A stretch of 64,000 bases of DNA, taken from assembly GCA_000503835.1 (NCBI GenBank), contig CP006914.1, positions 657,680 to 721,679 on the forward strand. The letters run 5' to 3'. Of this stretch, positions 1 to 52,911 are shown one piece after another. The DNA comes from a candidate division WWE3 bacterium RAAC2_WWE3_1. Its GTDB lineage: Bacteria > Patescibacteriota > WWE3 > UBA101185 > UBA10185. The position numbers and the translations under genes were made by a program. The stretch's first letter is position 1. Each line of letters begins with the position of its first letter. The notes under the pieces were generated by a model. It saw only the letters and a list, made by a program, of their open reading frames with translations, ran no database searches and was not told the origin of the DNA.

Positions 1-248
1 CAACAAAAGAGGAGGTCAACAAGGTTTTTCTTGAAGCCAAGAATAATCCGTTCTACAAGGGTGTTCTGGACGCTACTTATGCCCCTCTAGTCTCATCCGA
101 TATTATAAAAAGCAATTATTCGGCCATTGTTGATCTGGAGATGACGCGTGTGGTCGACGGCGATCTGATAAAGATCCTGGCTTGGTACGATAATGAGTGG
201 GGTTACAGCAACAGGCTTGTCGAGCTGGCTCTTTTGACGATTTCCTAA
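1..248 (+). CDS. gap: glyceraldehyde-3-phosphate dehydrogenase, C-terminal fragment (5' end outside window)
   Basis: In-frame translation ends ...LAWYDNEWGYSNRLVELALLTIS*, the classic GAPDH C-terminal motif. Stop at 246-248. Confidence 0.85.
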   Translation, partial: TKEEVNKVFLEAKNNPFYKGVLDATYAPLVSSDIIKSNYSAIVDLEMTRVVDGDLIKILAWYDNEWGYSNRLVELALLTIS

Positions 249-272
249 TATTATCCCTATACAAATGATAAA

Positions 273-1259
273 ATGGTTCCAATGAAATCAGTGTTGGAAG
301 CTAATATAACCGCCGGGCAAAAAGTCCTTGTAAGATGCGATCTGGATGTGCCGGTGGCACACAGGGAAGTTCAAGAAAAATACCGCTTGGAGGCTTCTTT
401 AGAAACTCTGAAATATATTATTTCCCGAGGCGCCTTGCCTATAATAATGGGGCATATGGGAAATCCCGGGGGTAAAACCGATGAGAGACTTTCAACCAAA
501 ACACTTTCATTCTTTTTCGATAATGAGCTGGGCGCGGGAAAGTACGAACTTATGGAAAACCTTCGTTTTAACCGCGGTGAAGAAGAAAATAATCTCCAAT
601 ATGCCAGGCAGTTGGCCGGCAACGGTAACATCTACGTAAACGAAAGCTTCGCCACCTCACACAGAAAACACGCGTCTATCGTAGGTATCCCCGAATGGTT
701 GCCTTCGTACGCAGGAATACGTTTTCTAAAAGAGATAGAAAATCTAAACGTCCTGCAGGGAGATGTGAAAAGACTTTTCGTAATAGTTATTGGCGGGGCG
801 AAGCTGGAAAGTAAGCTTCCCGTAGTGAAAAAATTCCTGAAAAGAGCTGATTTCATTTTATTGGGGGGCAAGCTGGGAACGGAATGGAAAGAGGAAATTC
901 CGTTCAATCTTGTGTTACCCGAGGACTATGCTCCTGAAAATAAAGATATCGGTAAACAAACAATTGCAAAATACACGGAAATTATTAACAGGGCGGGAAC
1001 GGTGCTTTGGGCAGGTCCTATGGGAGCCTATGAACAGCCGGAATATTCCCTGGGAACTATAGAAATCGCTTCAGCAATTGCTAAAAAAACGAAGGAAGGC
1101 GCTTTTACAGTTGTCGGCGGAGGGGATACAATAACGGCCGTCAGCAGTTATTCTCTGCTCGATAAATTTAGTTTTGTCTCTACCGGGGGCGGAGCGATGT
1201 TACAGTATTTAGCCGAGAGAACCTTACCCGGAATAGAAGCCTTAAATAAAAGAAAATAA
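273..1259 (+). CDS. pgk: phosphoglycerate kinase
   Basis: 328-aa ORF. N-terminal VLVRCDLDVP substrate-binding motif and C-terminal GGGDT...STGGGA motifs typical of PGK. Directly follows gap. Confidence 0.9.
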   Translation: MVPMKSVLEANITAGQKVLVRCDLDVPVAHREVQEKYRLEASLETLKYIISRGALPIIMGHMGNPGGKTDERLSTKTLSFFFDNELGAGKYELMENLRFNRGEEENNLQYARQLAGNGNIYVNESFATSHRKHASIVGIPEWLPSYAGIRFLKEIENLNVLQGDVKRLFVIVIGGAKLESKLPVVKKFLKRADFILLGGKLGTEWKEEIPFNLVLPEDYAPENKDIGKQTIAKYTEIINRAGTVLWAGPMGAYEQPEYSLGTIEIASAIAKKTKEGAFTVVGGGDTITAVSSYSLLDKFSFVSTGGGAMLQYLAERTLPGIEALNKRK

Positions 1260-1510
1260 TGCCAAAAATATTAAAAATAAGTTTTCCTGAGAAATGCGTA
1301 GGTTGCGAGATGTGCGCCATAGAAGCTCAACGACAGCTTAGAAAAATCGGGCTCGAGGGGGCGTTAATACGCGTCTTTAGGAACACAAACTCAAAGCTCG
1401 GAAACATAGAATACGCCTTAGAAATAGATCCGAGAATCAGCAGTCTTAACGTGGATAAAATACAAAAAATATGTCCGAAAGGCGTATTTGAAGTTGAGGA
1501 GACAGACTAA
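1259..1510 (+). CDS. small 4Fe-4S ferredoxin-like protein
   Basis: 83 aa with C-x2-C-x2-C (CVGCEMC) plus a distal CP (KICPKG), the single-cluster ferredoxin pattern. Start overlaps the pgk stop. Confidence 0.4.
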   Translation: MPKILKISFPEKCVGCEMCAIEAQRQLRKIGLEGALIRVFRNTNSKLGNIEYALEIDPRISSLNVDKIQKICPKGVFEVEETD

Positions 1511-2353
1511 ATGGAAACAAGACCGAGAAAGGTACTATCCATAGATCTGACAAAAAAGGAATACGAGGTAAAAAGTTTCGAAGATCTCAACAGTTACATC
1601 GGGGGTGTAGGGCTGGGATTCAAATTAATGGAGATGTATTACGATAAAAATCCTCTGATATTCGCAGTGGGCCCTCTGAATGGTCTTTTTCCCTTCGCAT
1701 CAAAAACGGCAGTCGTTATAAATAATGACGGGGTAATTGAAGATGTTTATCTTGGAGGAAGTATATCTTTACGCATAAGGTATGCCGGTCTGGATGCACT
1801 TGTCATACACGGGACTGCACAGGAACAAACTGTTCTGGATATCACAAATGCCGGTGTAAGTTTTAAAAATCAATCCGAAGATCCTGACACTTTGGGACTT
1901 CCCGGAAAAAGAAGCGTTATAAAAATGGACGGTTCAAAAATATTACTGGGCGGTTACTTTACGACCCCCGAACATTTCCTCGAAAAAGAATTCACGGATA
2001 AAAACATCTCCGGAATAGTAGTAACCGGTACAGAACTGATAAACATAAAGGACTTCGATAAATATGAAGAACTATACAAAAAGATCCTAAATAGAAAAAA
2101 CGAACTCAGCGTTATGGAGGGAACGTATCCGTCATGCTCTAACTGTCCGATGGGGTGCGGAAAATCAAAGACCGGAGAGATGGGCGGGAACGTCCTTCTG
2201 CACAGCCTGGTAGCCTGCCAATATGCGGATAGAATATATACTGACGTCGGTGTGGTCTTTTCCTGCCTCAATGTACTGGGGTACAATTACACTCATGAAG
2301 ATATCGAGGCTTTGCCGAAATTGATAGAACAAACACTAAGGAGGATCTCGTGA
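1511..2353 (+). CDS. truncated aldehyde:ferredoxin oxidoreductase (AOR) family protein, N-terminal domain only
   Basis: 280 aa. N-terminus (KVLSIDLTKKEYEVKSF..GGVGLGFKL...PLIFAVGPLNG...YAGLDALVIHG) aligns by eye to the AOR N-terminal domain. Retains a C-x2-C-P-x-G-C-G Fe-S motif (CSNCPMGCG). Lacks the ~320-aa tungstopterin-binding domains. Confidence 0.5.
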   Translation: METRPRKVLSIDLTKKEYEVKSFEDLNSYIGGVGLGFKLMEMYYDKNPLIFAVGPLNGLFPFASKTAVVINNDGVIEDVYLGGSISLRIRYAGLDALVIHGTAQEQTVLDITNAGVSFKNQSEDPDTLGLPGKRSVIKMDGSKILLGGYFTTPEHFLEKEFTDKNISGIVVTGTELINIKDFDKYEELYKKILNRKNELSVMEGTYPSCSNCPMGCGKSKTGEMGGNVLLHSLVACQYADRIYTDVGVVFSCLNVLGYNYTHEDIEALPKLIEQTLRRIS

Positions 2354-3000
2354 AATATATCGTAGCCAACTGGAAAATGAATATGAGCTTACAGGACGTG
2401 ATCGGGTGGACGGCCGGATTCGACACATCGGTGTTGAATGCAGATATTGAAGCAATTGTCGCCCCCTCCTCCTTGCACATTTTTCCTGTTGCGGAGATTC
2501 TGAAAAAAACCGGGGTAAGTGTAGCCGCACAGGATGTTTCGGTGGAAGAAAAGGGGGCTCATACAGGTGAAACGGGAGCTTTTCAGATCAAAGAGTTATG
2601 TAAATATGCGGTTATTGGACACAGCGAAAGGAAAGAAACTCCCGAAATTGTTGCCAAAAAAATAGACATTTGTCTGACCAACGGAATAATTCCTATCGTA
2701 TGTTTTGTCGAGCCGAAGAAAATAAGTCTGTATAAACGCCCCGGTATTATGTATGCATGGGAAGACCCGGCAAATATTTCGAAAAACGGCAGGTACAAAG
2801 AAAAAAGTGAGGAGGAAATAAAAGAAGGGGTGAATAAGATAAGGGAAATTTTAGATGATAAAGAACCTCTGCTCTATGGAGGATCAGTTAATGGACAAAA
2901 TATCTCCGGTTTGGTTAATATAGAAAAATTGGACGGTGTTTTAGTAGGCCACGCCAGCCTTGACCCAAGACACTTCTCCGGAATAATTGCCAGTTATTAA
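2350..3000 (+). CDS. tpiA: triosephosphate isomerase
   Basis: GTG start. MKYIVANWKMN N-terminus and an AIGHSERK-like catalytic motif (VIGHSERKE). 4-bp overlap with the upstream gene. Confidence 0.9.
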   Translation: MKYIVANWKMNMSLQDVIGWTAGFDTSVLNADIEAIVAPSSLHIFPVAEILKKTGVSVAAQDVSVEEKGAHTGETGAFQIKELCKYAVIGHSERKETPEIVAKKIDICLTNGIIPIVCFVEPKKISLYKRPGIMYAWEDPANISKNGRYKEKSEEEIKEGVNKIREILDDKEPLLYGGSVNGQNISGLVNIEKLDGVLVGHASLDPRHFSGIIASY

Positions 3001-3009
3001 TAGCATTCT

Positions 3010-4158
3010 ATGAAGTACATGGACATGTGCAAAAAAACTAACGGAACCGTTAGTACCATAAGAAACGAGCGCGGGGGCTCTCAGACAAAAACTCTCAAAT
3101 TTATTGGGGTTATAGGTTTGGTTGCCGCCGTGGCTGTGGCTTTTGTTTTTAAAGATAAGATACTCGCAGCCTTTAACCCCATTTCCGTGGTCGCCACAAT
3201 TGCAGGAACAAATCTCAAAGAAACCGACGGTAGAACGAATGTTTTAATATTGGGATCGGACAGAAGAGTAGCCGGAGCAGAGTCCGGAAGACCTGTGCTG
3301 ACAGACACCATCCTCGTTGCCTCTATAGGAAAAGTTGATAAAGATGTTGTTTTAATCTCTCTCCCCAGAGATTTGTGGGTAAAAGATCTCAACGGTTCAC
3401 ACAAAATTAACTCAGTTTATGCTTTCTCAAAGGGAGGGGAGGGGGCCGACAACCTGAGAGCAGTACTGCAGGATGTTTTGGGAATTCCGATTCACTATCA
3501 CGTTATGGTCTCTTTCGATCTTTTCCAAGAGATAATAGACATTCTCGGAGGAGTCGAAGTTACCGTAGACACATCTTTCACCGACTACGCGTATCCTATC
3601 GAAAACATGGAGGATAACAAATGCGGAAGAACAGACGAAGAAATTAAAAAGATGGGCGAAGAAGGTAAATCCGAACTTGAAATCTACTTTTGCAGATACG
3701 AAAAAATCGTGTTCAATCAGGGAGTGCAAAGCATGAACGGCGATACAGCCCTGAAATTTGTCAGGTCACGCCACGGAACCAACAACGAAAACACGGATTT
3801 TGCGAGATCCAGAAGACAGCAAAAAATTATCACGGCAATTAAAAATAAGTCGCTGTCGATCCAAACGCTGGTCAATCCCACGAAGCTTAAAAATTTGTAC
3901 GACGCTTACGCACAAAATACCGACACCGACATAGATTTCGGAGCCGTTAATTCTTTCTACCTGCTGTCGCAACAGATTAACTTTGACCGTGTGGTGTCCG
4001 TAGTACTCGATGACAGGAGCCCTGCAGATCAGGGAGGACTTCTGTACGCTCCCGGCGATAAAACCTTGTATAACGGACAGTACGTGCTGATACCCCAAAC
4101 CGGGGATTACGTTCAGATCCACGCATTTGTCCAAAGATACCTTTTCGGAGGAAAGTAA
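3010..4158 (+). CDS. LytR-CpsA-Psr (LCP) family cell-envelope protein
   Basis: N-terminal TM helix. NVLILGSDRR...DTILVASI and R..VNSVYAF motifs of the LCP domain. Confidence 0.75.
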   Translation: MKYMDMCKKTNGTVSTIRNERGGSQTKTLKFIGVIGLVAAVAVAFVFKDKILAAFNPISVVATIAGTNLKETDGRTNVLILGSDRRVAGAESGRPVLTDTILVASIGKVDKDVVLISLPRDLWVKDLNGSHKINSVYAFSKGGEGADNLRAVLQDVLGIPIHYHVMVSFDLFQEIIDILGGVEVTVDTSFTDYAYPIENMEDNKCGRTDEEIKKMGEEGKSELEIYFCRYEKIVFNQGVQSMNGDTALKFVRSRHGTNNENTDFARSRRQQKIITAIKNKSLSIQTLVNPTKLKNLYDAYAQNTDTDIDFGAVNSFYLLSQQINFDRVVSVVLDDRSPADQGGLLYAPGDKTLYNGQYVLIPQTGDYVQIHAFVQRYLFGGK

Positions 4159-4862
4159 TGATATACATAGTACACGGAGAAAATCTCTCCAAGTCTAGAG
4201 CTCTTATCCTAAACCAACAAAAGAAACTGATGGTCAGATACAAACAGGAGTTCTCGATACAGGACACAACCCCAACCGACCTTACCAGTAAAATAAGAAG
4301 TATCGATATTTTCGGGGAACCTCAGTTCTTTGTTGTGAACATCTCGGGTGCGGGACGTACTAATCTCGAGGATTACATAGACGTTATAGCGCAAACTCCC
4401 CCTCACACAACCCTCGTCATACTTTCAGAAAAAAAACTAACTGCCTCTAATATTTTTATTAAAAATGCCGGAATAATGAAAGCTCAAATCCTTGAAAACG
4501 AAAGTTTGGTTACCGGAACTTCGTTTGATTTTGTGGATGCCGTTATGAGAAAAGACAGAATTAACTCCTACAAACTCATGCACAGGGAACTGGATAGAGA
4601 TAAAGATCCGTTTGAACTCTTCGCTCTTCTTATGTATGGGCTTAGGTCACTGGCTCAGATTAAACTTGAAAGTCCGTCCTCTTCGGGGATGAATCCTTAT
4701 GTACGTTCCAAACAAAAAAATTTGATCGGAAAATACACCGAAGATGGAGTAAAGGATATGTTCAAAGAATTCTACGAACTGGATTTAAAAACTAAGGTAG
4801 GGGAGATAAACCCCGAGGTTATGCTAACTTTGGCCGTTGAAAAAGTGTTAAACTCTAAATAA
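4158..4862 (+). CDS. hypothetical protein, possibly DNA polymerase III delta (HolA)-like
   Basis: 234 aa. N-terminus MIYIVHGENLSKSRAL resembles the HolA N-terminus. Weak call; the protein is short. Confidence 0.3.
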   Translation: MIYIVHGENLSKSRALILNQQKKLMVRYKQEFSIQDTTPTDLTSKIRSIDIFGEPQFFVVNISGAGRTNLEDYIDVIAQTPPHTTLVILSEKKLTASNIFIKNAGIMKAQILENESLVTGTSFDFVDAVMRKDRINSYKLMHRELDRDKDPFELFALLMYGLRSLAQIKLESPSSSGMNPYVRSKQKNLIGKYTEDGVKDMFKEFYELDLKTKVGEINPEVMLTLAVEKVLNSK

Positions 4863-5593
4863 TGCCGATCCCGATTGAGCCCAGAAAATACGTCAAAGAT
4901 CATTCGAACGACCCCATTTATAAGACGGTAAATTATAGATTTTATTTCAGGTCCAGAATTCTGTCGGGACTGTTGTTGTCCTTGGGGTTTCTGGTACTTG
5001 GAACCCAGGTTGTGCTCCCCCTCGTCTTTTTCAAAACACAGGATGAGATTTCTAAACCTATGCGAAGCAGTATTCTCGGCCTTGCGACAGGATTTGATGA
5101 TTTTGAGTTTGTGGAGCTGGATGAAAAGAACGCAGGGGAGCCCAAAAAACCCGCGGAAACACCAAAATTCTTTACCATTTCGATACCGAAACTCGGGATA
5201 AAGGATGCACTGGTGGAAACCAATTCCCCCAGCCTGCGCCCTGACACAGCACTGGGGCATTATAACGGTTCCGCACTGCCCGGAAGTGTAGGCAACGCCT
5301 TCATTTACGGTCATTCCGTCCTACCCTGGTTCTACAATCCCAGGAACTACAGAACGATATTTTCAACTTTGGGTGATCTGGAGACAGGGGATGAAATCCA
5401 GATTAAATATATGGGAAGGGATTTGAATTATGTTGTAGAGTCCAAAGAACTCCTTCAGCCTGAGAAAGTAGACCCGCTGGCAAATTTTAAACCCGCGTAC
5501 CTCAACGAATCCACACTAATCCTCATGACGTGCTGGCCGCCGGGAACCAAAACAAACAGGTTGTTGGTGAAGGCTGTTCTGACGGAAAAGTGA
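4862..5593 (+). CDS. sortase family transpeptidase
   Basis: N-terminal TM anchor, conserved His (FIYGHSVLPWF) and the TLxTC catalytic motif (LILMTCWPPG). Confidence 0.8.
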   Translation: MPIPIEPRKYVKDHSNDPIYKTVNYRFYFRSRILSGLLLSLGFLVLGTQVVLPLVFFKTQDEISKPMRSSILGLATGFDDFEFVELDEKNAGEPKKPAETPKFFTISIPKLGIKDALVETNSPSLRPDTALGHYNGSALPGSVGNAFIYGHSVLPWFYNPRNYRTIFSTLGDLETGDEIQIKYMGRDLNYVVESKELLQPEKVDPLANFKPAYLNESTLILMTCWPPGTKTNRLLVKAVLTEK

Positions 5594-5595
5594 TA

Positions 5596-6096
5596 TCAAT
5601 TGTCTTTGAGGATTTTTTTCTCGAAACCGCCGAGCGCTGATTTTCTGGGGTTGCTGGCGATGTAGTACATTCCTGTCAGGAAAAATACCAGAGAGACTAA
5701 TAACCCCGCGGTAATTTCAACTGTACCGGTTTCCGGAACAGCACTTCCGCTCCCCGTCGTCTGAGAAGCCGTCGGCGAAGACGTGGCTCCTGCCAGTACT
5801 ACTCCCTCATTAACAGGAACAGCATCAACGGGCTTATCAGCAATCTCTCCGAAAATCGAAGAATCGGATGAAGTGTCAGAAATCCCTTCTACCTGTCCTG
5901 TGTCAACTTCCAGCGCCAATGCATCCGAAGGAAGCGGTTCTGTCGTCACGGGAGCTGTGGAAGCCTGGTATGGCGCGGATGAATTATCTGCACTGCTGTT
6001 CGTCACAAGGTAATAGACAACACTAAACACAATAAGGGAAATGGACAATGTCAATATAAAGGTTTTAAATCCGTTTTTTGCGCTATCGCTGTTCAT
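5596..6096 (-). CDS. hypothetical membrane protein with Ser/Thr-rich region
   Basis: 166 aa with N- and C-terminal hydrophobic helices flanking an S/T/A-rich low-complexity segment. Confidence 0.4.
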   Translation of the reverse strand: MNSDSAKNGFKTFILTLSISLIVFSVVYYLVTNSSADNSSAPYQASTAPVTTEPLPSDALALEVDTGQVEGISDTSSDSSIFGEIADKPVDAVPVNEGVVLAGATSSPTASQTTGSGSAVPETGTVEITAGLLVSLVFFLTGMYYIASNPRKSALGGFEKKILKDN

Positions 6097-6271
6097 AGGC
6101 AGGTTTCAAACTTCGTAGAAACTCTATGTCAATAGTAACATCTATCGGACGGGACATGTCAAGTATATTCTGAGTAATATATTTATCCCTATTTACGTTC
6201 TGGTCTCCGAAGAAAATCCAGAAACCCCCGGCTACGACAAAAAACGCGGTAGTAATAAGTAGTCTTTTCAT
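6083..6271 (-). CDS. small hypothetical membrane protein
   Basis: 62-aa ORF with one hydrophobic helix. In an operon position with the pilN/pilO-like genes. Confidence 0.25.
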   Translation of the reverse strand: MKRLLITTAFFVVAGGFWIFFGDQNVNRDKYITQNILDMSRPIDVTIDIEFLRSLKPAYEQR

Positions 6272-6275
6272 AATT

Positions 6276-6818
6276 TTACAGATTAAATATCCTTAAATTA
6301 ACGGTGGCCTCGGCACTGTCAGTGAGTTTTTCATATTTCACAGAATCTACGACCGTGACCCGCTGCATTCCTTCTAAGGCCGAGATGAAGCCGGAGAGAT
6401 CCCCGGTCCCCTCCAGAATAACCACAATGGGTACCTCTCCCCCCTCGCTCTCAGCAGAAGACACAAAATTCTTCACACTGAATCCTGACGCCGCCGCCTG
6501 CTGCATAAACAGAACCATGTAACTGTGCGTATTCAATTCTTTGGGTACGGTAGCTTCAAGTATAGGTCCGAATCTTTCTGCCACCGAAACGTCCGCCGAC
6601 AGTTCACTTAAACTCTGTAATTTTACGTTCAAACCGTAATTTAGCGCTCTCATTTCCTTGTATAAGGTAACCTTCTTACCCATGCTGAACGCCAACGGGC
6701 CTATGGCGAAAAATCCGAACAAAACCATACATACCAAAGCCCAAACGGTATATATCCTGGAAAGGAACAGTTCGTTCGAAAAAAATAGTTTGGCCGAATT
6801 CTGCACTTCGTCTCTCAT
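6276..6818 (-). CDS. PilO-like type IV pilus assembly protein (bitopic)
   Basis: 180 aa. Short cytoplasmic N-terminus, one TM, periplasmic domain. Size, topology and adjacency to a PilN-like gene. Confidence 0.35.
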   Translation of the reverse strand: MRDEVQNSAKLFFSNELFLSRIYTVWALVCMVLFGFFAIGPLAFSMGKKVTLYKEMRALNYGLNVKLQSLSELSADVSVAERFGPILEATVPKELNTHSYMVLFMQQAAASGFSVKNFVSSAESEGGEVPIVVILEGTGDLSGFISALEGMQRVTVVDSVKYEKLTDSAEATVNLRIFNL

Positions 6819-7411
6819 CTATAAACTCCTTCCAGTTTGACCGCATATACATTCTCGGAGGAGGAAAAAACCGCTTCCTTGATAACCACTTCCGATACTC
6901 CGCCGTCCTTCAGCCAGCTGAGAAACATGCCGGTAATACCGGCGGGTGAACTGCCTTTTACAACAATCTCAAATTTTTCGGGATTAAAATCGACTTTGCT
7001 TAGGCTAAGATCCTGAGAAAGCCTGGACATAATAAAGGAAATCCTGGTGGTCAGCGGCTTTCTGGCGCCGATGGTATTTTTGCTGTAGTTGATCTTACCG
7101 GCGATTTGCCTGGCTTTTTCTTCCACACCTGCGTATTCGTTTATTTTAAATTCCAGGTTTTTCTGCTCGCTGAGAAGGCTGTTGAGAAGGAAAGTCACCA
7201 CCATGTGTGCGGCCAAAAGTCCGGCAAGAGCGACACTAAAAAAAACAATCAACGAGGAGGAAATTTTTACGGTGCTGCCCGCAGTAAACGCTTCGGCACG
7301 TAAAGATTCGGGATTGAAAAATAAAGTGTCGTCCGGTGTATAAATTTCGCCCTTAAGCGTTTTTTCTTCGTTTTCCCGGGGCTTTAGAAAGGGCAGATAT
7401 TTTTCTAGCAT
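6815..7411 (-). CDS. PilN-like type IV pilus assembly protein (bitopic)
   Basis: 198 aa. About 50-aa cytoplasmic N-terminus, one TM, coiled-coil plus periplasmic domain. The 5' 59 nt overlap the rpsT 3' end, so the start is uncertain. Confidence 0.35.
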   Translation of the reverse strand: MLEKYLPFLKPRENEEKTLKGEIYTPDDTLFFNPESLRAEAFTAGSTVKISSSLIVFFSVALAGLLAAHMVVTFLLNSLLSEQKNLEFKINEYAGVEEKARQIAGKINYSKNTIGARKPLTTRISFIMSRLSQDLSLSKVDFNPEKFEIVVKGSSPAGITGMFLSWLKDGGVSEVVIKEAVFSSSENVYAVKLEGVYR

Positions 7412-16274: not shown

Positions 16275-16610
16275 TTGTTAATATCCCCGTTTGTTAGTGT
16301 TAGAATATTTCTAATGCCGCGATCAATCACATCTTTGGGAAATTTCGAAGAGACCTCTCCGGAAGTACAAGAGCCCGGAATTGAAATTATTCCTCAAGTA
16401 ACTCCCGAAGTAGAAAAGGGGGGAGAAATGCCTTCTGTAGTCAATATACCGGAAACTGCCGCGCCTCCGATTGTTGATGTAAGCACGCACGAAACTCTAC
16501 CGGACCACCCCGTCACCCCGAAAGATTCCATAACATCTCTTGCGAACGAAGAGGAAAGCCGCTTCAGACAAGAAGTTCAGGAAGAAAAACTGCCCAATGG
16601 ATCAGCTTAA
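16275..16610 (+). CDS. hypothetical Pro/Glu-rich protein
   Basis: 111-aa low-complexity P/E/T-rich ORF. Its 3' end overlaps the VirB4-like gene start. Confidence 0.3.
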   Translation: MLISPFVSVRIFLMPRSITSLGNFEETSPEVQEPGIEIIPQVTPEVEKGGEMPSVVNIPETAAPPIVDVSTHETLPDHPVTPKDSITSLANEEESRFRQEVQEEKLPNGSA

Positions 16611-19041
16611 CAATCTAGATAGCATTAATACAACAGTCGAAAACACTGCGCACACAGCTGAATTTATTGCACCTATCCTTTTCGTCCTCTTCATAGCTCT
16701 TTATGTTTTTGTCGTGTGGAAGAAAAAACAGAACGAGAAAGTATCCCAATACAAGCTGACTTTTTTACAGGTTAAACTTCCCCCCGACAACGAAATAGAG
16801 GTAAAAGCCGCTGAACATATGTTTTCCAACCTGATGGGTTTTCAAAAAAGTTTCCTTCAATCCATATTTACAGAACCTTTTAGGATTTCGTTTGAGATAG
16901 TTTCAAAAGCCGACGGAATAGCATTTTACGTTGTCGCCCCAAATGAAATTGCAACTATAGTAGAAAAACAAATTAACGGAGCTTACCCTACGGCGGAAAT
17001 AGATATAATAAACCCCCATGAAATATGGGATAGGGGCTCTTACACACAGGTAGTGGAATTAAAACTACGCGGACCTTCATACTACCCACTCAAAATTTAT
17101 GAGGATCTGAAAAACGACTCTCTGAGCTCTATTACTTCTGCCATGAGTAAACTGAGCGATGACGAGGTCGTTGCGGTACAGTACGTTATTCAGCCTGCAG
17201 GGGATAACTGGAGACTGGCCGGTAGAAGATTTTGCTCCAGTATCAGACAACGGGCGGCTGATCCGGAAAAAAAGGTAAACATAGACACGTCATTCCTCGA
17301 AGGAATAGAAAAAAAGACCGCACTACCCGGGTTCTATACAAAGATCAGGATCGTCTCCGTGGCTAAAGACAAATTTGCCGCACAGTCCAACGTTCAGAAC
17401 ATGCTCAGCGCCTTCGAACAATTCACAAACATGAACTACAACAAACTTGTAAGGAAAACTATGATTTCGGCCAAAACTCTCATCAAAAATTTTATTTACA
17501 GAAAAATAAAAGTGAAGGATGTATACATACCTGTTGCCGGAATACAGATTTACTCCGATACGTCGGTCCTAAATATCGAAGAGCTTGCGACCGTGTTTCA
17601 CTTCCCGAATAAAAATATTGAGACGCCGAACATTATTTGGCTCACCGCGAGAAAATCTTCGGCCCCGGTCAACCTGCCGACAACCGGCCTTTACCTTGGA
17701 AAGAGTAACTTCAGGGGCGTAGAGAAGCAGATCTTTATGAGCCAGGAAGACAGGGCGCGGCACTTTTACATCATCGGACAAACGGGTACCGGTAAGTCTC
17801 AATTTTTAATGTCGCTTGCATTGCAGGATATCCAAAATGGCGAGGGTGTGGCAATAATAGACCCCCACGGAACTGATGTGGAGGAATTGTTAAAAAAGAT
17901 ACCGCCTTCAAGAAAAGATGATGTTATTCTTTTCGACGCGTCAGACACAGAAAGACCGATGGGTATAAACATGCTGGAAGCAAGGTCGGAAGAAGAGAAA
18001 CATCTGATAATCAACTCTTTCATAGCCCTTCTTTATAAACTTTACGACCCTAACCACCAGGGAATAATGGGGCCTGTTTTGGAGCGAACCGTAAGAAACG
18101 TTATGCTGACCGCGATGTCTGACCCGGACAGCACAATGATTGACGTTATGAGGCTCCTCACGGACTCCAACTACAGCAAAGTATTTATCGAAAGACTCAC
18201 CGACCCGCTGGTGAAAAGGTACTGGATAGACGAGGTCGCCAGCGTTCCGCAGGGAAAAAGGGGTGAAAATATGCAATATTTCACCGCTAAGTTCGACCGT
18301 TTCGTTACTGACAGAACTATGCGAAATATTTTAGGCCAGAAGAAATCCGCGTTTAATTTTGATGATGTTATGGCACAGAAAAAAGTACTTCTCGTCGATC
18401 TGTCAAAAGGAAAAATAGGCGAGGAAAATTCCAACTTTATTGGGTTATTATTGGTACCGAGAATATTATCAGCTGCCCTGAGAAGACATTCTCTATTAAC
18501 CAAGGGGGTCGCTTATCCGGACTTTTATCTCTACGTCGATGAATTTCAAAACTTCGCTACCCCTGACTTCGCGACAATCCTTTCGGAGGCCAGAAAGTAT
18601 AAATTGAACCTTACCGTTGCGCACCAGTTTATTTCCCAGCTCGATGACCAGATCAAAGAAGCCGTGTTCGGCAACGTCGGTACGATGTGTGCTTTCAGGG
18701 TGGGAGCGGAAGATTCGGAATTTCTGGAAAATCAATTTGCCCCTAAATTCACAAAGACCGATCTTATAAACCTATCGATAGGCAACTGCTACGCAAGAAT
18801 GCTTGTGAAAGGACAACCGACCCCTCCTTTCTCTCTGGCTGTAGACTGGAACAAGATAACTTCAACTCCAAAGGACGAGATACTGGCAAGGAACATCAAA
18901 GAAACATGCCGCCTCAAATACGGAGTTCCGGCAGAAGAAGTCGAAGAGTACATAAAACTCCGTGCCGGTTACGAAGAGAGAAAAGAACCGGAAGAGGCGC
19001 CCCTGCCTAAGATTCCTCCTCCCGGCAGAATTCCCTTTTAA
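16597..19041 (+). CDS. VirB4/TrbE-like type IV secretion ATPase (DUF87-type P-loop NTPase)
   Basis: About 815 aa. N-terminal TM helix. Walker A GQTGTGKS near residue 415. Walker B ...LYVDEFQNF and an ...EARKYKLNLTVAHQ motif about 240 aa downstream. This spacing is VirB4-like rather than VirD4-like. Confidence 0.5.
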   Translation: MDQLNNLDSINTTVENTAHTAEFIAPILFVLFIALYVFVVWKKKQNEKVSQYKLTFLQVKLPPDNEIEVKAAEHMFSNLMGFQKSFLQSIFTEPFRISFEIVSKADGIAFYVVAPNEIATIVEKQINGAYPTAEIDIINPHEIWDRGSYTQVVELKLRGPSYYPLKIYEDLKNDSLSSITSAMSKLSDDEVVAVQYVIQPAGDNWRLAGRRFCSSIRQRAADPEKKVNIDTSFLEGIEKKTALPGFYTKIRIVSVAKDKFAAQSNVQNMLSAFEQFTNMNYNKLVRKTMISAKTLIKNFIYRKIKVKDVYIPVAGIQIYSDTSVLNIEELATVFHFPNKNIETPNIIWLTARKSSAPVNLPTTGLYLGKSNFRGVEKQIFMSQEDRARHFYIIGQTGTGKSQFLMSLALQDIQNGEGVAIIDPHGTDVEELLKKIPPSRKDDVILFDASDTERPMGINMLEARSEEEKHLIINSFIALLYKLYDPNHQGIMGPVLERTVRNVMLTAMSDPDSTMIDVMRLLTDSNYSKVFIERLTDPLVKRYWIDEVASVPQGKRGENMQYFTAKFDRFVTDRTMRNILGQKKSAFNFDDVMAQKKVLLVDLSKGKIGEENSNFIGLLLVPRILSAALRRHSLLTKGVAYPDFYLYVDEFQNFATPDFATILSEARKYKLNLTVAHQFISQLDDQIKEAVFGNVGTMCAFRVGAEDSEFLENQFAPKFTKTDLINLSIGNCYARMLVKGQPTPPFSLAVDWNKITSTPKDEILARNIKETCRLKYGVPAEEVEEYIKLRAGYEERKEPEEAPLPKIPPPGRIPF

Positions 19042-19059
19042 TCCCGTTGCTGTATAATC

Positions 19060-20274
19060 ATGATAATGATAACGCTGCCGTTCCTCCAGAAAAGTACAAA
19101 GCGCCCCAGCAAATTTTTGACACTTTCCATAAATTCCGAAGATGTAAAATGCGCTGTTTTTTATGACGACCCGGCAGAAGCAAAACTTAAAATATTGGGG
19201 GCGGGAAGACAGATTTTATCAAAAGACAGTTCAAGAGCCGGAATAATCGTCGATAAAGATGATGTAGAAGGCGCCGCCGAAGAGGCTATAAGACGTGCGC
19301 TGGAAAATACCGAGGGTGACGTTCCTCATCTTATTATCGCTGCAGGAAATGCTACAGTGCTCGGAATTACAACAACGGTAAGGTACAGAAGAAAGGAGCC
19401 CCACACGGCCATAAATGATAAAGAGGTCACCCGTCTTTACGAACGCATCTCGGAGGCCGCTTATATTGAAGCCCAGAACGAATACTTGAGCACCACGGGT
19501 AACGCCGACGAAAATCTCGAGATTATAACAACATCCGACGTTTCGCTAAAAATTGACGGGCACTCGGTAAAAGGTTTGGAAGGAAACGCCGGGTTGGTTA
19601 TAGAAGCGGCCGTCTACCATGCTTTTTGCCCCGAGTATCACATAAAAGCTCTTCAGGCACTGGCAAAAAAGCTCGGTCTGAGCATACTGGCGGTAGGCTC
19701 CGGAATGTATTGCGCAGCTCAATGGGTCAAGAAAATAACCCCCGAGATAACCGATTACATCCTGGTAGATGTTGCGGAGGATACTACCAATGTTTCAATC
19801 GTTTTCGGCGGAGGTATTGTAGCCACTAAATTTTTAAGTCTGGGGCACAGACATTTTGTGGAACAAATTGCCGAGCGTATGGGAGTCACCATGGAAGAGG
19901 CCGGAAAATTACTCAAATCTTATATCAGTGAGGTACTGTCCGACCCCGAAATGGAAGTGGTCGGAGGCTGTATAAAAGAGGCTATAAAAATATGGGTGAT
20001 GGGGATTGAAATACTATTCGGAGAGTTCACCGGGGTTAAAACCTTTCCTTCCAAAATATTTTTACTGGGGGCGGGAGCGGAGATACCCGAAGTTGTAAAG
20101 GCGCTGATGACGGATTCGTGGGCAAAGAACATACCCTTCAGGGAGACGCGGGAAGTATCTCTCATGGAAATCGAAGGTCTTCCTGTCACCGACGCAACAG
20201 GGGTCGTGAAAAGTAAAGACTGGTTTAGCAACGCAGTTCTATCTATAATCTATAAGGAAATTTTTGATAAATAA
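19060..20274 (+). CDS. actin-like ATPase, PilM/FtsA family
   Basis: 404 aa. N-terminal FLTLSINSEDVKCAVF resembles the PilM/FtsA phosphate-1 region. No ftsZ follows. Confidence 0.4.
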   Translation: MIMITLPFLQKSTKRPSKFLTLSINSEDVKCAVFYDDPAEAKLKILGAGRQILSKDSSRAGIIVDKDDVEGAAEEAIRRALENTEGDVPHLIIAAGNATVLGITTTVRYRRKEPHTAINDKEVTRLYERISEAAYIEAQNEYLSTTGNADENLEIITTSDVSLKIDGHSVKGLEGNAGLVIEAAVYHAFCPEYHIKALQALAKKLGLSILAVGSGMYCAAQWVKKITPEITDYILVDVAEDTTNVSIVFGGGIVATKFLSLGHRHFVEQIAERMGVTMEEAGKLLKSYISEVLSDPEMEVVGGCIKEAIKIWVMGIEILFGEFTGVKTFPSKIFLLGAGAEIPEVVKALMTDSWAKNIPFRETREVSLMEIEGLPVTDATGVVKSKDWFSNAVLSIIYKEIFDK

Positions 20275-20291
20275 TTTTTAGAAAGTTTTAA

Positions 20292-21803
20292 ATGACAAAA
20301 CTTGAACTGGAAATACATGACGACGCCCTTTCGACGATAAATAAAATCAGAAACCTGAATGATTCAGGGATTGAACTGATTGTTCCCGAAGGTTCTATTC
20401 TCTTCGACAATATAATCAGTCTTAAACTTATCTCTCAGGCCGCCGACAAGAATCAAAAGATAATCCAGTTCACAACAACCGATGAAACCGGAGCCTCTCT
20501 CATCGCAATGCTGGAAGAGCCGGCGGGTCAGTCCGGACAGGACTACCGACCCGGGGAGATTGAACAGTTCGTAAACACTGCTCCGGAAAAGAGCCGCTTT
20601 ATTTTTAAAAAAGATATGCTTCCGAAGATAAAACTTCCGAAATTTAAAAGTGGCTTGATGCTGCCTGCAATAATTCTTGCGATACTGGCCGGAACAGTGT
20701 TTTTTCTTTCAAAAAAACCCGTGGCTTACGCAAGAGTTTTACTCAACTCCCAGCCTCTGACGAGAAGTACCACCGTAAAAGTGAAGCACGGAGGAACTAC
20801 AGACGCCGCAAAAATGGAATTGAAAGGACAGACACTGGACACCAATGTCGAAATTACGGATGAAATACCCGCAACGGGTGAGAAACTTGTGGGAAAAAAA
20901 GCGGAAGGGGAGGCGCTGCTTTATAACAAAACGGTTGAAGAAGTCGAACTTAAGAAAGGCAGCAAGTTAAATTATGATGAAAAAGACCTTGTCTATATCC
21001 TTGATGACGATGTTACTATTCCGGCACGCGTAGATGACCCGGTAGATCCTACAATAATAAAGCTCGGGGAAGCCACCGTAAAAATTACGGCAGCGGACAT
21101 AGGAAGTGACTACAACATCGACGCAAACGAAAACCTTGAAGTAGACGACCACAAATCAAGCGAAGTTGTGGCAAAAACGAAGGATGACCTGGAAGGGGGA
21201 GAGAGTAAAAAAGTAAAGGTGGTGGCAGAAGCGGACAAAGCGGCGCTTCAGAAAAAAGTTATAGAAGCCGCAAAGGAAAAGGCAGCCTCAGACCTGAAAT
21301 TTAAACTTGGAAAAACGCAACGTCTTATCGAAGGCTCCGTAATACCCACAATAACAAAAGAGGTTTATAGTGCAAAGCCGGGAGACGAAGCAGAAAAACT
21401 TATCCTTACAGGATACGCGAGCGCTTCGGGACTTACCTATCTGGACTCAGAGCTTAATTCCCTGCTCGATAAGATAGTCCAAAACCTGGTTCCTCAGGGG
21501 CACGTTCTCTCAGAAAAACAGCGCGAGGTCAGCGCAATACCTTTAGGTAACTCCAGTGCCAGCATACTTAATTCAGCCGAAGCCGACATGCAGATAACTT
21601 TAAAGACCTTTACCGTAACGGCAGTTGACAAAGAAGAGCTTAAAAAGACTCTGGCCGGAAAATCGGTGGCGGAAGCCGAAAAGGTCCTGGGAAGCATCGG
21701 CAGTCTTAGCACCTATTCCATCGAAATCAAGCCCGTGATACCCCTGTTTAACAAAGTTCCCAAGGATCTGAACAGGATCAATCTGGAAGTAGAGAATGAG
21801 TAA
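20292..21803 (+). CDS. hypothetical bitopic membrane protein (about 120-aa cytoplasmic domain, one TM, large K/E-rich extracytoplasmic domain)
   Basis: 503 aa. TM at about residues 122-140 (LPAIILAILAGTVFFL). May partner the upstream PilM-like ATPase. Confidence 0.45.
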   Translation: MTKLELEIHDDALSTINKIRNLNDSGIELIVPEGSILFDNIISLKLISQAADKNQKIIQFTTTDETGASLIAMLEEPAGQSGQDYRPGEIEQFVNTAPEKSRFIFKKDMLPKIKLPKFKSGLMLPAIILAILAGTVFFLSKKPVAYARVLLNSQPLTRSTTVKVKHGGTTDAAKMELKGQTLDTNVEITDEIPATGEKLVGKKAEGEALLYNKTVEEVELKKGSKLNYDEKDLVYILDDDVTIPARVDDPVDPTIIKLGEATVKITAADIGSDYNIDANENLEVDDHKSSEVVAKTKDDLEGGESKKVKVVAEADKAALQKKVIEAAKEKAASDLKFKLGKTQRLIEGSVIPTITKEVYSAKPGDEAEKLILTGYASASGLTYLDSELNSLLDKIVQNLVPQGHVLSEKQREVSAIPLGNSSASILNSAEADMQITLKTFTVTAVDKEELKKTLAGKSVAEAEKVLGSIGSLSTYSIEIKPVIPLFNKVPKDLNRINLEVENE

Positions 21804-23774: not shown

Positions 23775-23861
23775 AAAACAACAAAGATTAGACAGAATTC
23801 ACAAAATGGCCAAGACACCAAACAAAAAGCTTCCAACAAGCAACACAAGTTGCTTTATCAT

Positions 23862-23870
23862 TGTGGATAA
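23862..23870 (-). promoter_or_regulatory. DnaA box (TTATCCACA, perfect)
   Basis: TGTGGATAA on the + strand, about 50 nt upstream of the dnaA start. Confidence 0.6.
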
Positions 23871-23920
23871 CTTTTGATATATTTGACAAATCCCGCCTAA
23901 AAAGAAATTTTTTGCACCCT

Positions 23921-25330
23921 ATGATGGAGAACTTTAAAGAAAAACCAATAGAGTTCTGGAAGGCTGTCCTCGGAGAAGTAGAACTTAAACTATCACCCAT
24001 GGTGTTTAAATCTTTAGTTTCCAGAACCACCGCAGAAATTGATAACGACGGAAACTTAAAGGTTCTGTGCGAGGACGATTTTGTTAAAAACAACGTAGAA
24101 AAAAGGTATAACGGGGTAATCGAGGAGGCAGCCATGAAACTTGCCAACCGCAGGGTGTTGCTTAAAGTAGTAGTAAAAAAAGCGGGTGTAGAAGAAAAAT
24201 CCGCCGCGGCAGCTGCTAATACAAACTTGGGGCCCCTTTTTATCCAACCAAGATCTCCCGCGGACACAATGAGGGAAAAACAGAAAAAATCCAACCTGTC
24301 TCCCAAGTTCACGTTCGAAAGTTACGTTATGGGAAAAAACAACAACCTCGCATATGCCATAGCCACGGCTGTGGCCCAAAGACCGGGAGAGTTATACAAC
24401 CCTGTTTTCGTATATTCCGGGGTAGGTTTAGGAAAAACACACTTGATCCAGGCAATAGGCAATGAAATAGTAAAAAACAAGCCGGGAATGAATGTTGTAT
24501 ACACGACCGGGGAAGCCTTTACGAACGAGCTCATAGATGCAATCAAGAACGGTAAGGGAGGTCCGGGTAAATATACTACCAACGATTTTAGAAATAAGTT
24601 CAGAAAAGCCGATGTGCTCCTGATAGACGATATCCAGTTCGTGATAGGAAAAGAGGCCACGCAGGAAGAGTTTTTCCACACATTCAACGCGCTTTACATG
24701 GCGCAAAAACAGATAGTGATTACTTCTGACCGCCCCCCAAAGGACTTCAACAGTTTTGAAGAAAGAATAACGTCAAGATTCAGCAGTGGAATAATCGCGG
24801 ACATACAAGCCCCGGACATGGAGGTCAGGGCGGCTATTCTGAGAACAAAGAGGGATATGCTGGGACACAACATTTCGAACGAAGTTCTTAATTTTATTGC
24901 CGAAAGCGTCACAACAAATATCAGAGAGTTGGAGGGTGCCTACGTGCAGGTATTAAGCGGCGCTATGGCCTCAAAGATAGAGCCTACCAAAGAATCCGCC
25001 GCGGCCGCTCTAGGACAAAACCTCAGAAACAACCAAAAAAGGAATGTCAGTGTAAACGAAATATTAAAGGCAGTATGTACTTACTACGCTGTAAAAGTTC
25101 CGGACATAAAAGGAAAACGAAGAACAAAAGACCTGGTAATACCGCGCCAGGTGGCAATGTTTCTTATGAAAGAAATGACCGACACACCTTACATGACAAT
25201 CGGAGATTTTTTAGGAGGGAGGGACCACACCACCATAATGCACGGGGTAAGAACCATTGAGGGAGAAGTTTCAAAGGCCGGAAAGATAAAACAAGATATC
25301 GTTAACGTGCGGCTTACGTTGGCAGAATAA
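23921..25330 (+). CDS. dnaA: chromosomal replication initiator DnaA
   Basis: MMENFKEKPIEFWKAVL... N-terminus. AAA+ Walker A GVGLGKTHL, Walker B LLIDDIQF. C-terminal DNA-binding domain (...VAMFLMKEMTDTPY...IGDFLGGRDHTTIMHG). An upstream in-frame Met at 23861 is also possible. Confidence 0.9.
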   Translation: MMENFKEKPIEFWKAVLGEVELKLSPMVFKSLVSRTTAEIDNDGNLKVLCEDDFVKNNVEKRYNGVIEEAAMKLANRRVLLKVVVKKAGVEEKSAAAAANTNLGPLFIQPRSPADTMREKQKKSNLSPKFTFESYVMGKNNNLAYAIATAVAQRPGELYNPVFVYSGVGLGKTHLIQAIGNEIVKNKPGMNVVYTTGEAFTNELIDAIKNGKGGPGKYTTNDFRNKFRKADVLLIDDIQFVIGKEATQEEFFHTFNALYMAQKQIVITSDRPPKDFNSFEERITSRFSSGIIADIQAPDMEVRAAILRTKRDMLGHNISNEVLNFIAESVTTNIRELEGAYVQVLSGAMASKIEPTKESAAAALGQNLRNNQKRNVSVNEILKAVCTYYAVKVPDIKGKRRTKDLVIPRQVAMFLMKEMTDTPYMTIGDFLGGRDHTTIMHGVRTIEGEVSKAGKIKQDIVNVRLTLAE

Positions 25331-40546: not shown

Positions 40547-41350
40547 ATGTTCTTTGTGAAAAATAATTTCTTAAAAGTGTTGGGCATAGTATTTGTGCTT
40601 TCTCTTTCTATGACAACCACGACCGCCCCCTCTGTGTTTGCTGCTGAGGGTGGGGTGTGCTCGGGGTACACCTTACACAATACATGTGGCGGACAGAAAA
40701 CAGCGGATGGGCTCGAGTGCACTTGTGCGGTGGGGTACCGTTGTTTGGCCCCAAGCCTGTCTTGTTACTGCCAGAAAGATGATACGTGCGGTGTTGCCAC
40801 GGATATTTGTGATGCTGCCCACGAGGGTCAGTGCGGGGTTGCAGGGGGTTGTGGTAAAACAACAACAGTTTGTAAGAAGACGGTTGCAACCGTAAGCGGA
40901 GGCTCTCCGGTATATAACTACGACTGCGTATACGATTACTCTTCTCCGTGTGCATGCGTGTTGGGGCAAACATGCCCTGACGATGGTATCCACCAGTGTC
41001 TTCCTACCGGAGGTTGCTGGGCACCAACACCGACAAGTACAGGAGACTACACTTCAGGAGAATGGGTGTATAACGAACCTGAGTACAAAGGTCCTATAAT
41101 CACGGATATTGCCGGCCTTCTCGCCCCTGTTTTTAAAATCCTTTTCTACGCCGGCATTTTCATTGGAATATTAGGCATTATTTACTCAGGCTATCTGTTA
41201 ATCGCAAGCGAAGGCGACCCCGGAAGGGCAAAAGAAGGCAAAGATCAATTTACCGCAGCCATTTTAGGCACCCTTTTCGTGCTGTTGTCAGTATTAATAC
41301 TGCGGGTTATAATTAACAACATCCTGGGTGTTACCAACTCAGTATTGTAA
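40547..41350 (+). CDS. Cys-rich secreted domain fused to a VirB2/TrbC-like two-helix pilin module
   Basis: Signal peptide, about 130 aa with at least 20 Cys, then a C-terminal module (TM, SEGDPGRAKEGKDQ loop, TM, ...INNILG) that is paralogous to the three downstream small proteins. Confidence 0.5.
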   Translation: MFFVKNNFLKVLGIVFVLSLSMTTTTAPSVFAAEGGVCSGYTLHNTCGGQKTADGLECTCAVGYRCLAPSLSCYCQKDDTCGVATDICDAAHEGQCGVAGGCGKTTTVCKKTVATVSGGSPVYNYDCVYDYSSPCACVLGQTCPDDGIHQCLPTGGCWAPTPTSTGDYTSGEWVYNEPEYKGPIITDIAGLLAPVFKILFYAGIFIGILGIIYSGYLLIASEGDPGRAKEGKDQFTAAILGTLFVLLSVLILRVIINNILGVTNSVL

Positions 41351-41390
41351 CTGGTTTTTTTGAGGGAGGTGTAGAAACTAAATAATTAAT

Positions 41391-41717: not shown

Positions 41718-41750
41718 CCACGGGGCCGCCGCTTTAGTTTGCTATTAAGT

Positions 41751-41771
41751 GGGCCCGGTAGGCCCGGGCCC
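41751..41771 (+). other. GC-rich perfect hairpin (GGGCCCGG-N-CCGGGCCC) between pilin paralogs
   Basis: GGGCCCGGTAGGCCCGGGCCC. No U-run follows. Possible intra-operon attenuator or RNA-processing/stability element. Confidence 0.35.
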
Positions 41772-41797
41772 CCGTTATAATTTAGGAGTTTATTCAT

Positions 41798-42109: not shown

Positions 42110-42121
42110 TATCTAATTTTT

Positions 42122-52840: not shown

Positions 52841-52884
52841 CCGCATGGAATGACGACCTATAGTTATAATTAATCCTATTTTCG

Positions 52885-52893: not shown

Positions 52894-52911
52894 ACGCGTG
52901 TACTTTAACAA

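Follow-up and report, generated by a model that had tools for sequence, protein, structure and literature searches.

By default, proteins of the aldehyde:ferredoxin oxidoreductase (AOR) family are taken to be tungsten- or molybdenum-pterin catalysts. The members considered here are the AOR of Pyrococcus furiosus (PfAOR; 1AOR), FOR (1B25), WOR5 (6X6U) and BamB (4Z3W), which have in common with the protein described below the fold and sequence of domain 1, a C-x2-C-x3-C loop, a fourth cysteine within an ‘SLvxCxxA’ segment and the gene for a small Fe-S protein directly upstream. That protein, ORF280, is encoded in a stretch of 64,000 nucleotides (referred to throughout as the window; contig CP006914.1, positions 657,680 to 721,679) from the candidate division WWE3 bacterium RAAC2_WWE3_1, where its gene and that of an 83-residue ferredoxin-like protein, fd83, lie between pgk and tpiA in a string of glycolytic genes. 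ORF280, or mini-AOR (280 residues; 1511..2353, + strand), comprises domain 1 and a putatively complete [4Fe-4S] site, the pterin domains having been deleted, and fd83 (1259..1510, + strand) has the cysteine pattern of a single-[4Fe-4S] protein and looks like a reduced form of the small Fe-S subunit of AOR. In contrast to the enzymes listed above, ORF280 lacks AFOR_C and the ‘YD-YE’ and ‘RHSH’ motifs, and it is predicted to be without pterin and without aldehyde-oxidizing chemistry. ORF280 is thus an AOR-family derivative reduced to its electron-transfer parts; within the limited literature that could be searched on AOR, GAPOR, AFOR_N and the pterin cofactor in the Candidate Phyla Radiation and WWE3, no description of the pair was found. 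‘A ferredoxin oxidoreductase-like protein’, named among the electron carriers in one paper (PMC3812714), is the sole mention in print that might concern this gene.

Anatomy of the mini-AOR and its partner

An earlier reading of the window, made from sequence only, had recognized in the 280-residue protein the N-terminal domain of an AOR together with a C-x2-C-P-x-G-C-G iron-sulfur motif, and had proposed that the pterin-binding domains were lacking; the profile searches bear out all of this. AFOR_N (PF02730) is the sole Pfam domain of ORF280 (residues 7–123; E 5.6e-22, 78.9 bits against a cutoff of 29.8), and AFOR_C (PF01314) gave no Pfam match at E<=1. A family profile made from 34 diverse members covers, with its positions 9–193, all of AOR domain 1 (PfAOR 9–223; E 1.9e-22), and a weak second stretch places the sequence CSNCPMGCG, with C209, C212 and C216, on PfAOR 284–299, which holds Cys288, Cys291 and Cys295. 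When the family profile is compared with 18 full-length AORs, it aligns as three collinear pieces. The first, in which profile positions 1–199 correspond to residues 1 to ~225 of the long AORs, is domain 1, the beta-sandwich base of the family; in ORF280 it is encoded at 1511..2107 (residues 1–199) and is ~25–30 residues shorter than in canonical members. The second (profile positions 205–221, corresponding to about 272–300) is a short piece of domain 2, namely the cluster loop C209-x2-C212-P-x-G-C216, encoded at 2135..2158 and aligned to the CxxCPxGC of long AORs. The third (profile positions 224–285) corresponds to residues 447–508 in long forms of 550 residues and to residues 482–545 in canonical AORs of 590–604 residues, with scores of up to 37.9 bits; it is a retained segment of domain 3, residues 224–280 of ORF280, encoded at 2180..2350, and contains C236 (2216–2218), C252 (2264–2266) and H262 (2294–2296). 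The parts of ORF280 that align to AOR domains 2 and 3 amount only to segments of ~17 and ~57 residues.

The third piece is of importance for the cluster. The family sequence ‘sLvaC(236)eyA’ aligns there with ‘SLHAC(494)LFA’ of the protein P0193 and, because P0193 is a canonical AOR with four cysteines in total, C236 can be regarded as the counterpart of the fourth cluster ligand. All four ligand positions of the AOR [4Fe-4S] cluster (C288, C291, C295 and C494 of PfAOR) are present in ORF280, which keeps a complete predicted [4Fe-4S] site. As judged from these alignments, ORF280 is an AOR with three deletions, roughly of PfAOR 224–283, 300–481 and 540–605, and lacks ~305 residues of the full protein, amounting to nearly all of both pterin domains. 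Alignment with long AORs places the conserved ‘YD-YE’ and ‘RHSH’ motifs in the deleted segments; the catalytic Glu313 and His448 of PfAOR probably fall within them. Amongst the residues that make the pterin or Mg contacts in the 1AOR structure, Arg182 is replaced by F150, a near-invariant phenylalanine, and Asn93 by Y80, and the only basic match is K65, at the position of Arg76. An AlphaFold2 model of ORF280, computed on the family alignment, has a pLDDT of 94.5 and a pTM of 0.93, and a Foldseek search with this model returned AOR-family structures only (E about 1e-15; TM-score 0.57–0.65 over the query).

The earlier term ‘truncated’ is inexact, in that the protein is internally deleted and retains a segment of domain 3. 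A simple C-terminal truncation was considered and rejected, since the last 57 residues align to domain 3 rather than to the stretch just beyond the cluster loop. An assembly or frameshift artefact was also rejected, since 20 genome loci and many metagenome contigs show the same length of ~280 residues and the same junction with tpiA.

The 83-residue partner had been described as a single-cluster ferredoxin, and this is supported by the invariance of its four cysteines, in the arrangement C13-x2-C16-x2-C19 and C72-P73, in 18 homologues, although the score against Pfam Fer4 (17.3 bits) is below the cutoff of 21.1 and NCBIfam matches are far below theirs. The ligand codons are at 1295–1297 (C13), 1304–1306 (C16), 1313–1315 (C19) and 1472–1474 (C72, with proline next). 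The same C-x2-C-x2-C...C-P pattern recurs in the small open reading frames (ORFs) that precede the genes of distant short forms and those of the long forms discussed below. The AlphaFold2 model of fd83 alone is poor (pLDDT 60.8). The likely derivation of the protein is indicated by the nearest canonical AORs, P0201 and P0212: upstream of the former is the gene for a 133-residue, 16-cysteine Fer4_11 polyferredoxin, ending 5 nt before the AOR gene, and upstream of the latter is an abutting ORF of 153 residues with 17 cysteines. Positions 2–42 of an fd83-family profile match the N-termini of these two polyferredoxins with 36.8 and 24.3 bits, respectively, in a targeted test on two sequences whose E-values are not database-wide; the similarity is not confined to the cysteines but extends to ‘gl(d/e)xS.IRV’. 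Where the polyferredoxins have an additional cysteine after the first motif, fd83 has alanine. The best match of the profile in the PDB is the Fe-S subunit of WOR5 (6X6U_B), which at E 0.14 is not significant. Thus, fd83 shares with the polyferredoxin small subunits of AOR its gene position, the N-terminal ~40 residues and the C-P...E(I/V)EE end, and differs from them in having four cysteines against their 16–17, which is the basis for assigning it one cluster against four. It is best read as an AOR small subunit reduced from four clusters to one.

Conservation, gene order and descent

A word-indexed search gave 361 homologues of ORF280, from genomes and metagenomes of WWE3 and the ‘Patescibacteria group’; among the matches listed, nearly all are 276–287 residues long. 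An exhaustive search at E<=1e-30 gave 38 representatives, the majority with ~270–300 residues and the identity going down to about 30%, and after these short forms the order of scores continues with proteins of 538–554 residues and then with canonical AORs. A homology search with the family profile mostly recovered the same close relatives again. Residue conservation was counted in 206 family members of 255–330 residues (at least 206 exist), using at each position the ungapped sequences only. The four predicted ligands are almost without exception retained: C209 in 193/194, C212 in 192/192, C216 in 191/194 and C236 in 194/195. Two further residues behave similarly, C252 (189/195) and H262 (194/195). 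C252 is particular to the short forms; most long forms have Ala or Leu at this position, with P0198 the only one to have Cys, and a few short forms have Ala. H262 is common to one set of long forms (group A: P0182, P0191, P0198 and P0205), and is found neither in a second set (group B: P0187, P0190 and P0194) nor in canonical AORs. There are also smaller relatives of 198–220 residues, in which domain 1 is much reduced, namely P0189 (217 residues; locus L025, 466–1119), P0192, P0203 and P0208. In P0189 and P0192 (~215 residues) the C-x2-C-x3-C loop and the fourth cysteine are kept; P0203 and P0208 are without the cluster cysteines, as is another family member, P0199.

Constraint was estimated from nonsynonymous divergence (dN) against four close relatives, which is 0.005–0.042 for fd83, 0.034–0.056 for ORF280, 0.060–0.076 for pgk and 0.117–0.159 for tpi. 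The values for fd83 and ORF280 are below those of pgk, tpi and lytR, and in most comparisons below those of holA and the sortase gene, so that few genes of the block are more constrained than these two.

The genes of the pair are closely joined to each other and to their neighbours, and the start–stop overlaps that the sequence-only reading had given at 1259, 1510/1511 and 2350/2353 prove to be exact in coordinates and junctions. The pgk stop codon TAA (1257–1259) overlaps the ATG of fd83 (1259) in TAATG (1257–1261); the stop codon of fd83 (TAA, 1508–1510) abuts the ATG of ORF280 (1511; junction 1508–1513); and the stop codon of ORF280 (TGA, 2351–2353) overlaps the GTG start of tpiA (2350) in GTGA (2350–2353). 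Shine-Dalgarno-like sequences precede ORF280 (GAGGAG, 1496–1501) and tpiA (AAGGAGGA, 2338–2345). Over positions 1–7000, promoter- and terminator-like matches are not above the frequency in shuffled sequence, which fits a single transcription unit. It may be noted that fd83 and ORF280 share a reading frame with one TAA (1508–1510) between them, as do their counterparts in loci L001 and L003; because the two genes overlap in different frames in most other loci, a read-through fusion is not a conserved feature.

The insertion between pgk and tpiA that had been described is borne out, and the homologues are consistently linked to glycolytic genes. The order pgk-fd-mAOR-tpi-lytR(-holA-srt), where fd and mAOR denote the ferredoxin-like and mini-AOR genes and srt the sortase gene, is kept in 20/20 related genome loci, save where a contig ends. 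An fd gene is directly 5' of the AOR-like gene, whether of the short or the long form, in all sampled loci with readable upstream sequence except L024, and the gene for triosephosphate isomerase (TIM) is directly 3' of the mini-AOR gene in every sampled locus that has a short form bearing the cluster cysteines and readable downstream sequence. The arrangement extends to distant members of the family: pgk-fd-mAOR-tpi-lytR for P0173 (30% identity), trx-fd-mAOR-tpi for P0166, trx-gap-fd-mAOR-tpi-lytR for P0164 and, despite its size of 217 residues, fd-mAOR-tpi for P0189. The trx gene encodes a thioredoxin of ~87 residues with the motif WCGPC, and is found 14–70 nt 5' of gap in 16/16 WWE3 genome loci whose upstream sequence is long enough, as well as in L032/L033, which makes trx-gap-pgk-fd-mAOR-tpi the conserved unit. 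Among the distant loci, trx adjoins the module in L023 (trx-fd-mAOR-tpi) and in L027/L028 (trx-gap-fd-mAOR-tpi), and in L021/L022 the fd-mAOR module is present with no trx directly 5' of pgk. The place occupied by trx in the relatives (L001–L019 and L032/L033) lies beyond the 5' edge of the window. L021, the locus of a family member with 30% identity, also has a [NiFe]-hydrogenase cluster at 1–3622 on the minus strand, adjacent to the pgk of pgk-fd-mAOR-tpi and divergently transcribed. Its four genes stand for NiFeSe_Hases, Oxidored_q6, an FAD/NAD-binding subunit that includes an Fe-S domain, and a multi-Fer4 subunit, and the cluster looks like group 3b.

Long forms of the AOR-like protein provide insight into the origin of the pair. 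P0182 (538 residues, with AFOR_N and AFOR_C; L026) is found in the order pgk-fd79-AOR-lytR-holA; P0187 and P0190 (550 residues, with both domains; 6001–7653 in L029 and in L030) in the order gap ... fd-AOR-lytR-holA-sortase; and P0191 (554 residues; L031) on a short contig on which a fragment of an fd gene is followed by the AOR gene and lytR. The gene contexts cover these four long forms, and not P0194, P0198 and P0205; no tpiA follows the AOR gene in any of the four, and lytR is there instead. The proteins of 538–554 residues are thus like the short forms in occupying the same slot with the same small ferredoxin upstream, and are the closest full-length relatives by score; they differ in that they keep AFOR_C domains and are not followed by tpiA. 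Group A keeps the four cysteines and, in alignment with canonical AORs, lacks the ‘RHSH’ segment. In a crude neighbour-joining tree of domain 1, the short forms and the four forms of 198–220 residues make up one clade, sister to P0182/P0191, and all of these lie beside one canonical bacterial clade. The data show a series that runs from a canonical AOR with a four-cluster subunit, through syntenic long forms without conserved motifs, to the form of 280 residues and then to forms of ~215 residues. In the simplest history, the glycolytic string of an ancestor contained a two-subunit AOR, which lost catalysis and, in the WWE3 line, was then cut to its cluster-bearing core.

It had been suggested that the protein was related to GAPOR, the member of the family that oxidizes glyceraldehyde-3-phosphate (GAP), to which the mini-AOR is linked by membership of the same superfamily and, thematically, by a gene position that evokes GAP metabolism. 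The comparison does not support this. ORF280 has no match at E<=1 to the NCBIfam equivalog GAPOR_Arch (NF040818; cutoff 1300 bits), and the catalytic domains of GAPOR are absent from it. A full-length GAPOR had been envisaged at the same operon position in relatives; full-length AOR-family genes do occur there (P0182, P0187 and P0190), but none reaches the GAPOR cutoff, the long syntenic and the canonical relatives scoring 18–44 bits. P0201, the nearest canonical AOR with readable neighbours, has no glycolytic genes alongside, on which basis the glycolytic linkage is specific to this clade of Patescibacteria. GAPOR ancestry is unsupported on both counts and, to judge from its sequence, the fd83/ORF280 pair cannot be GAPOR.

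Possible functions of the pair

The reading that we favour, and consider probable, is that fd83 and ORF280 form a conserved, non-catalytic and pterin-less redox relay or sensor with two Fe-S clusters, derived in situ from an AOR. The ancestor would have been a tungsten or molybdenum aldehyde oxidoreductase of the ferredoxin type, with a polyferredoxin small subunit and a catalytic subunit of ~590 residues, both of which would have been pared down in place within the glycolytic gene string of a lineage of Patescibacteria; of the large subunit there would remain domain 1 and precisely those two short stretches in which the four cluster cysteines lie. Each of the two present-day proteins may bind one cluster, with fd83 docked on the mini-AOR in the way of the small subunit of a full AOR, so that electrons could pass between the two clusters. 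The cluster of the mini-AOR might then be the end of the path and serve to sense the ferredoxin pool or the redox state; alternatively, it might be a relay to a new partner. There being no pterin site, the pair would not oxidize GAP or any other aldehyde by AOR chemistry. Co-transcription with trx, gap, pgk and tpi would tie expression of the pair to lower glycolysis. Since PFOR and a type-3b hydrogenase have been reported in WWE3 genomes (PMC3812714), reduced ferredoxin is expected to be a part of WWE3 metabolism.

The anatomy, homology, conservation and synteny of the pair are the observations on which this proposal builds, and any functional coupling to glycolysis is inferred. Of the two origins that the sequence-only reading had offered, that of a repurposed Fe-S and ferredoxin-docking module is the one favoured by the evidence, although the wiring to lower glycolysis that formed part of it derives from gene order only.

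A number of points weigh against the proposal or restrict it. In the long forms of group B all four cysteines have been lost, with aspartate at the fourth position, and yet the ferredoxin encoded upstream keeps its own four; a ferredoxin that persists beside a large subunit without a cluster would have a role independent of that cluster, and this pattern is the main point that the favoured reading leaves unexplained. The gene order of WWE3 is inherited as a block, so the linkage to glycolysis may be historical rather than functional. The argument from constraint uses the ranking of dN only, omega being rough because dS, the synonymous divergence, is saturated, and the short-form clade in the tree has a bootstrap value of 53%, which is only moderate support. 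We infer the binding of clusters by either protein, and the interaction between the two, from their sequences. A Pfam scan of 30 of the larger ORFs at 14.4–63.3 kb, a part of the window that carries little weight for the genome as a whole, showed no genes for the pterin cofactor, thioredoxin reductase, PFOR or hydrogenase, and offered no electron donor or acceptor for the pair among the ORFs scanned.

Alternatively, the mini-AOR might serve TIM or another glycolytic enzyme as a structural or regulatory partner, its cluster being mainly structural and its action exerted through protein contacts. We think this unlikely, although it is the best of the alternatives. Evidence for it includes the TIM gene that follows every sampled cluster-bearing short form, often with overlap, and that is missing after the long forms of L026, L029, L030 and L031; in addition, the cluster-free long forms of group B have been retained, which implies some cluster-independent role in the lineage. 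However, a TIM identical to that of the window has been crystallized alone (7r7m), and so folds without the mini-AOR; the ligand cysteines are invariant even where domain 1 is much reduced, which points to the cluster as the functional core; and the adjacency to TIM may stem from a single ancestral event.

A further possibility, to which we give a little less weight, is that the pair is a ferredoxin-dependent regulator of thiol redox state, in which fd83 would reduce the cluster of the mini-AOR and this in turn would reduce or sense the thioredoxin of the operon. GAPDH or other enzymes of the operon would thereby be placed under the control of ferredoxin, in functional analogy to the ferredoxin:thioredoxin reductase (FTR) system, with which the locus is alike only in the components that its operon brings together, namely a ferredoxin, a [4Fe-4S] protein, a thioredoxin and GAPDH. 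In favour of such a scheme are the WCGPC thioredoxin 5' of gap in 16/16 WWE3 loci, and beside the module in L023 and L027/L028, and the near-invariant extra residues C252 and H262 of the short family. Moreover, there is no trx 5' of gap in L029 and L030, whose AOR-like protein has lost its cluster, and in L024 the one short form without the cluster motif is near a thioredoxin-like gene that has WCPDY as its motif. FTR chemistry requires a redox-active disulfide beside the cluster, and hence two extra cysteines, whereas the mini-AOR has only one that is conserved and thus no pair for a disulfide on the cluster side; nor is there kinship with FTR in sequence or fold, ORF280 having no match to the FTR families of Pfam and NCBIfam. 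Most long AORs, and a few short ones, have Ala where C252 stands, as would suit a small buried residue. The association with trx is phylogenetically confounded, and L021/L022 have the module with no trx directly 5' of pgk. Taken to its full extent, the scheme would make the fd83/mini-AOR pair a new ferredoxin-driven redox switch that links the ferredoxin pool on the side of PFOR and hydrogenase to the operon thioredoxin, and thence to the GAPDH-PGK-TIM core, a picture that we hold to be just as doubtful. If true, it would be a non-homologous counterpart of the ferredoxin:thioredoxin system, made from the electron-transfer leftovers of a tungsten enzyme.

Two other explanations are very improbable. 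An active GAPOR- or AOR-like oxidoreductase that oxidizes GAP or another aldehyde and feeds ferredoxin would suit the AOR-family ancestry and the position among GAP-handling enzymes, but there is no AFOR_C and no match to GAPOR_Arch, the ‘YD-YE’ and ‘RHSH’ segments are deleted, Phe and Tyr stand in place of Arg182 and Asn93 of PfAOR, and normal GAPDH and PGK are encoded alongside. A non-functional remnant of an AOR operon, riding along in a conserved string, was the other origin offered by the sequence-only reading, and might be seen in the progressive loss of AOR motifs from the long forms, in the loss of cluster cysteines from group B, P0199 and P0203 and in the existence of forms of 198–220 residues; but length and cysteines are kept in about 200 sequences down to 30% identity, the frame is intact, the starts are coupled, the predicted fold is confident, and the position of both genes below the pgk and tpi of the same genomes in the ranking of dN effectively rules out a remnant in decay.

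Neighbouring genes and significance

The window opens within gap, of which it contains the 3' end (1..248, + strand, cut by the window edge; stop 246–248). The identity of this fragment follows from its orthologous position, since a full GAPDH (Gp_dh_N/Gp_dh_C), with a thioredoxin before it, is encoded at the same slot in L001–L020 and L032. Then follows pgk (273..1259, + strand), for a phosphoglycerate kinase (PGK) of 328 residues (Pfam PGK, E 2.7e-82; PDB PGKs down to E 3e-61), which is unusually compact when compared with the ~390–420 residues of solved PGKs. The spacing between gap and pgk is 25 bp in the window and 400–900 bp in several lineages (L001, at 3161–3763; L008, L009, L011, L016, L017 and L020), in which it holds unrelated and variable ORFs of ~120–230 residues on the opposite strand; in those genomes, trx-gap would thereby be separated from pgk-fd-mAOR-tpi.

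On the other side of the pair, tpiA (2350..3000, + strand; GTG start) encodes a TIM of 216 residues (Pfam TIM, E 2.9e-42), also unusually compact, ~250 residues being typical. Its C-terminal half is divergent and reads ‘WEDPANISKNG’ at what is presumably the place of the catalytic loop in typical TIMs. Over 215 residues the protein has 100% identity with chain 7r7m_A of the PDB, whose length is 216 residues, and this corroborates the GTG start; the entry holds two chains, and no paper on it was found in literature searches. The idea that an archaeal-type TIM was acquired together with the AOR is unsupported for the window, the best non-self matches of the TIM in the PDB and in NCBIfam being of the bacterial type. 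The genes lytR_cpsA_psr, a holA-like gene and a sortase gene continue without gaps 3' of tpiA.

Further along the window there are type-IV-secretion-like genes at 16540–21803 (an 833-residue HerA/TraG-like ATPase, followed by two ORFs without a Pfam match), dnaA at 23861–25330, in view of which a replication origin may lie nearby, and a T4SS-pilin-domain protein followed by small ORFs at 40547–42601. On the minus strand, ORFs of 1273 and 1270 residues (43253–47074 and 48488–52300) flank one of 446 residues without a Pfam match. The region 52355–53300 holds the gene for SmpB and, immediately after it, a tmRNA gene (52912–53300; tag ADKDAFVGVPAMAAVAA), and four tRNA genes (Ser, Arg, Ala and Ser) are found at 56.1–62.1 kb.

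In databases, members of the family are labelled ‘AFOR_N domain-containing protein’, ‘hypothetical protein’ or, wrongly, ‘aldehyde:ferredoxin oxidoreductase’ (JGI names). Automated labels of the last kind could lead metabolic reconstructions of WWE3 and other Patescibacteria to credit these organisms, wrongly, with the oxidation of aldehydes or GAP. What the locus presents instead is a catalytic enzyme stripped to its electron-transfer parts and yet apparently under very strong selection, stronger than that on the neighbouring PGK and TIM. Both fd83 and ORF280 are small and should be easily expressed, and the neighbouring TIM has already been crystallized. GAPDH, PGK and TIM belong to the near-universal metabolic core of the minimal-genome Patescibacteria (PMC7304191), and the insertion of a conserved Fe-S pair into that core thus offers a specific and testable lead to the ways in which these fermenters may handle low-potential electrons or sense redox state.

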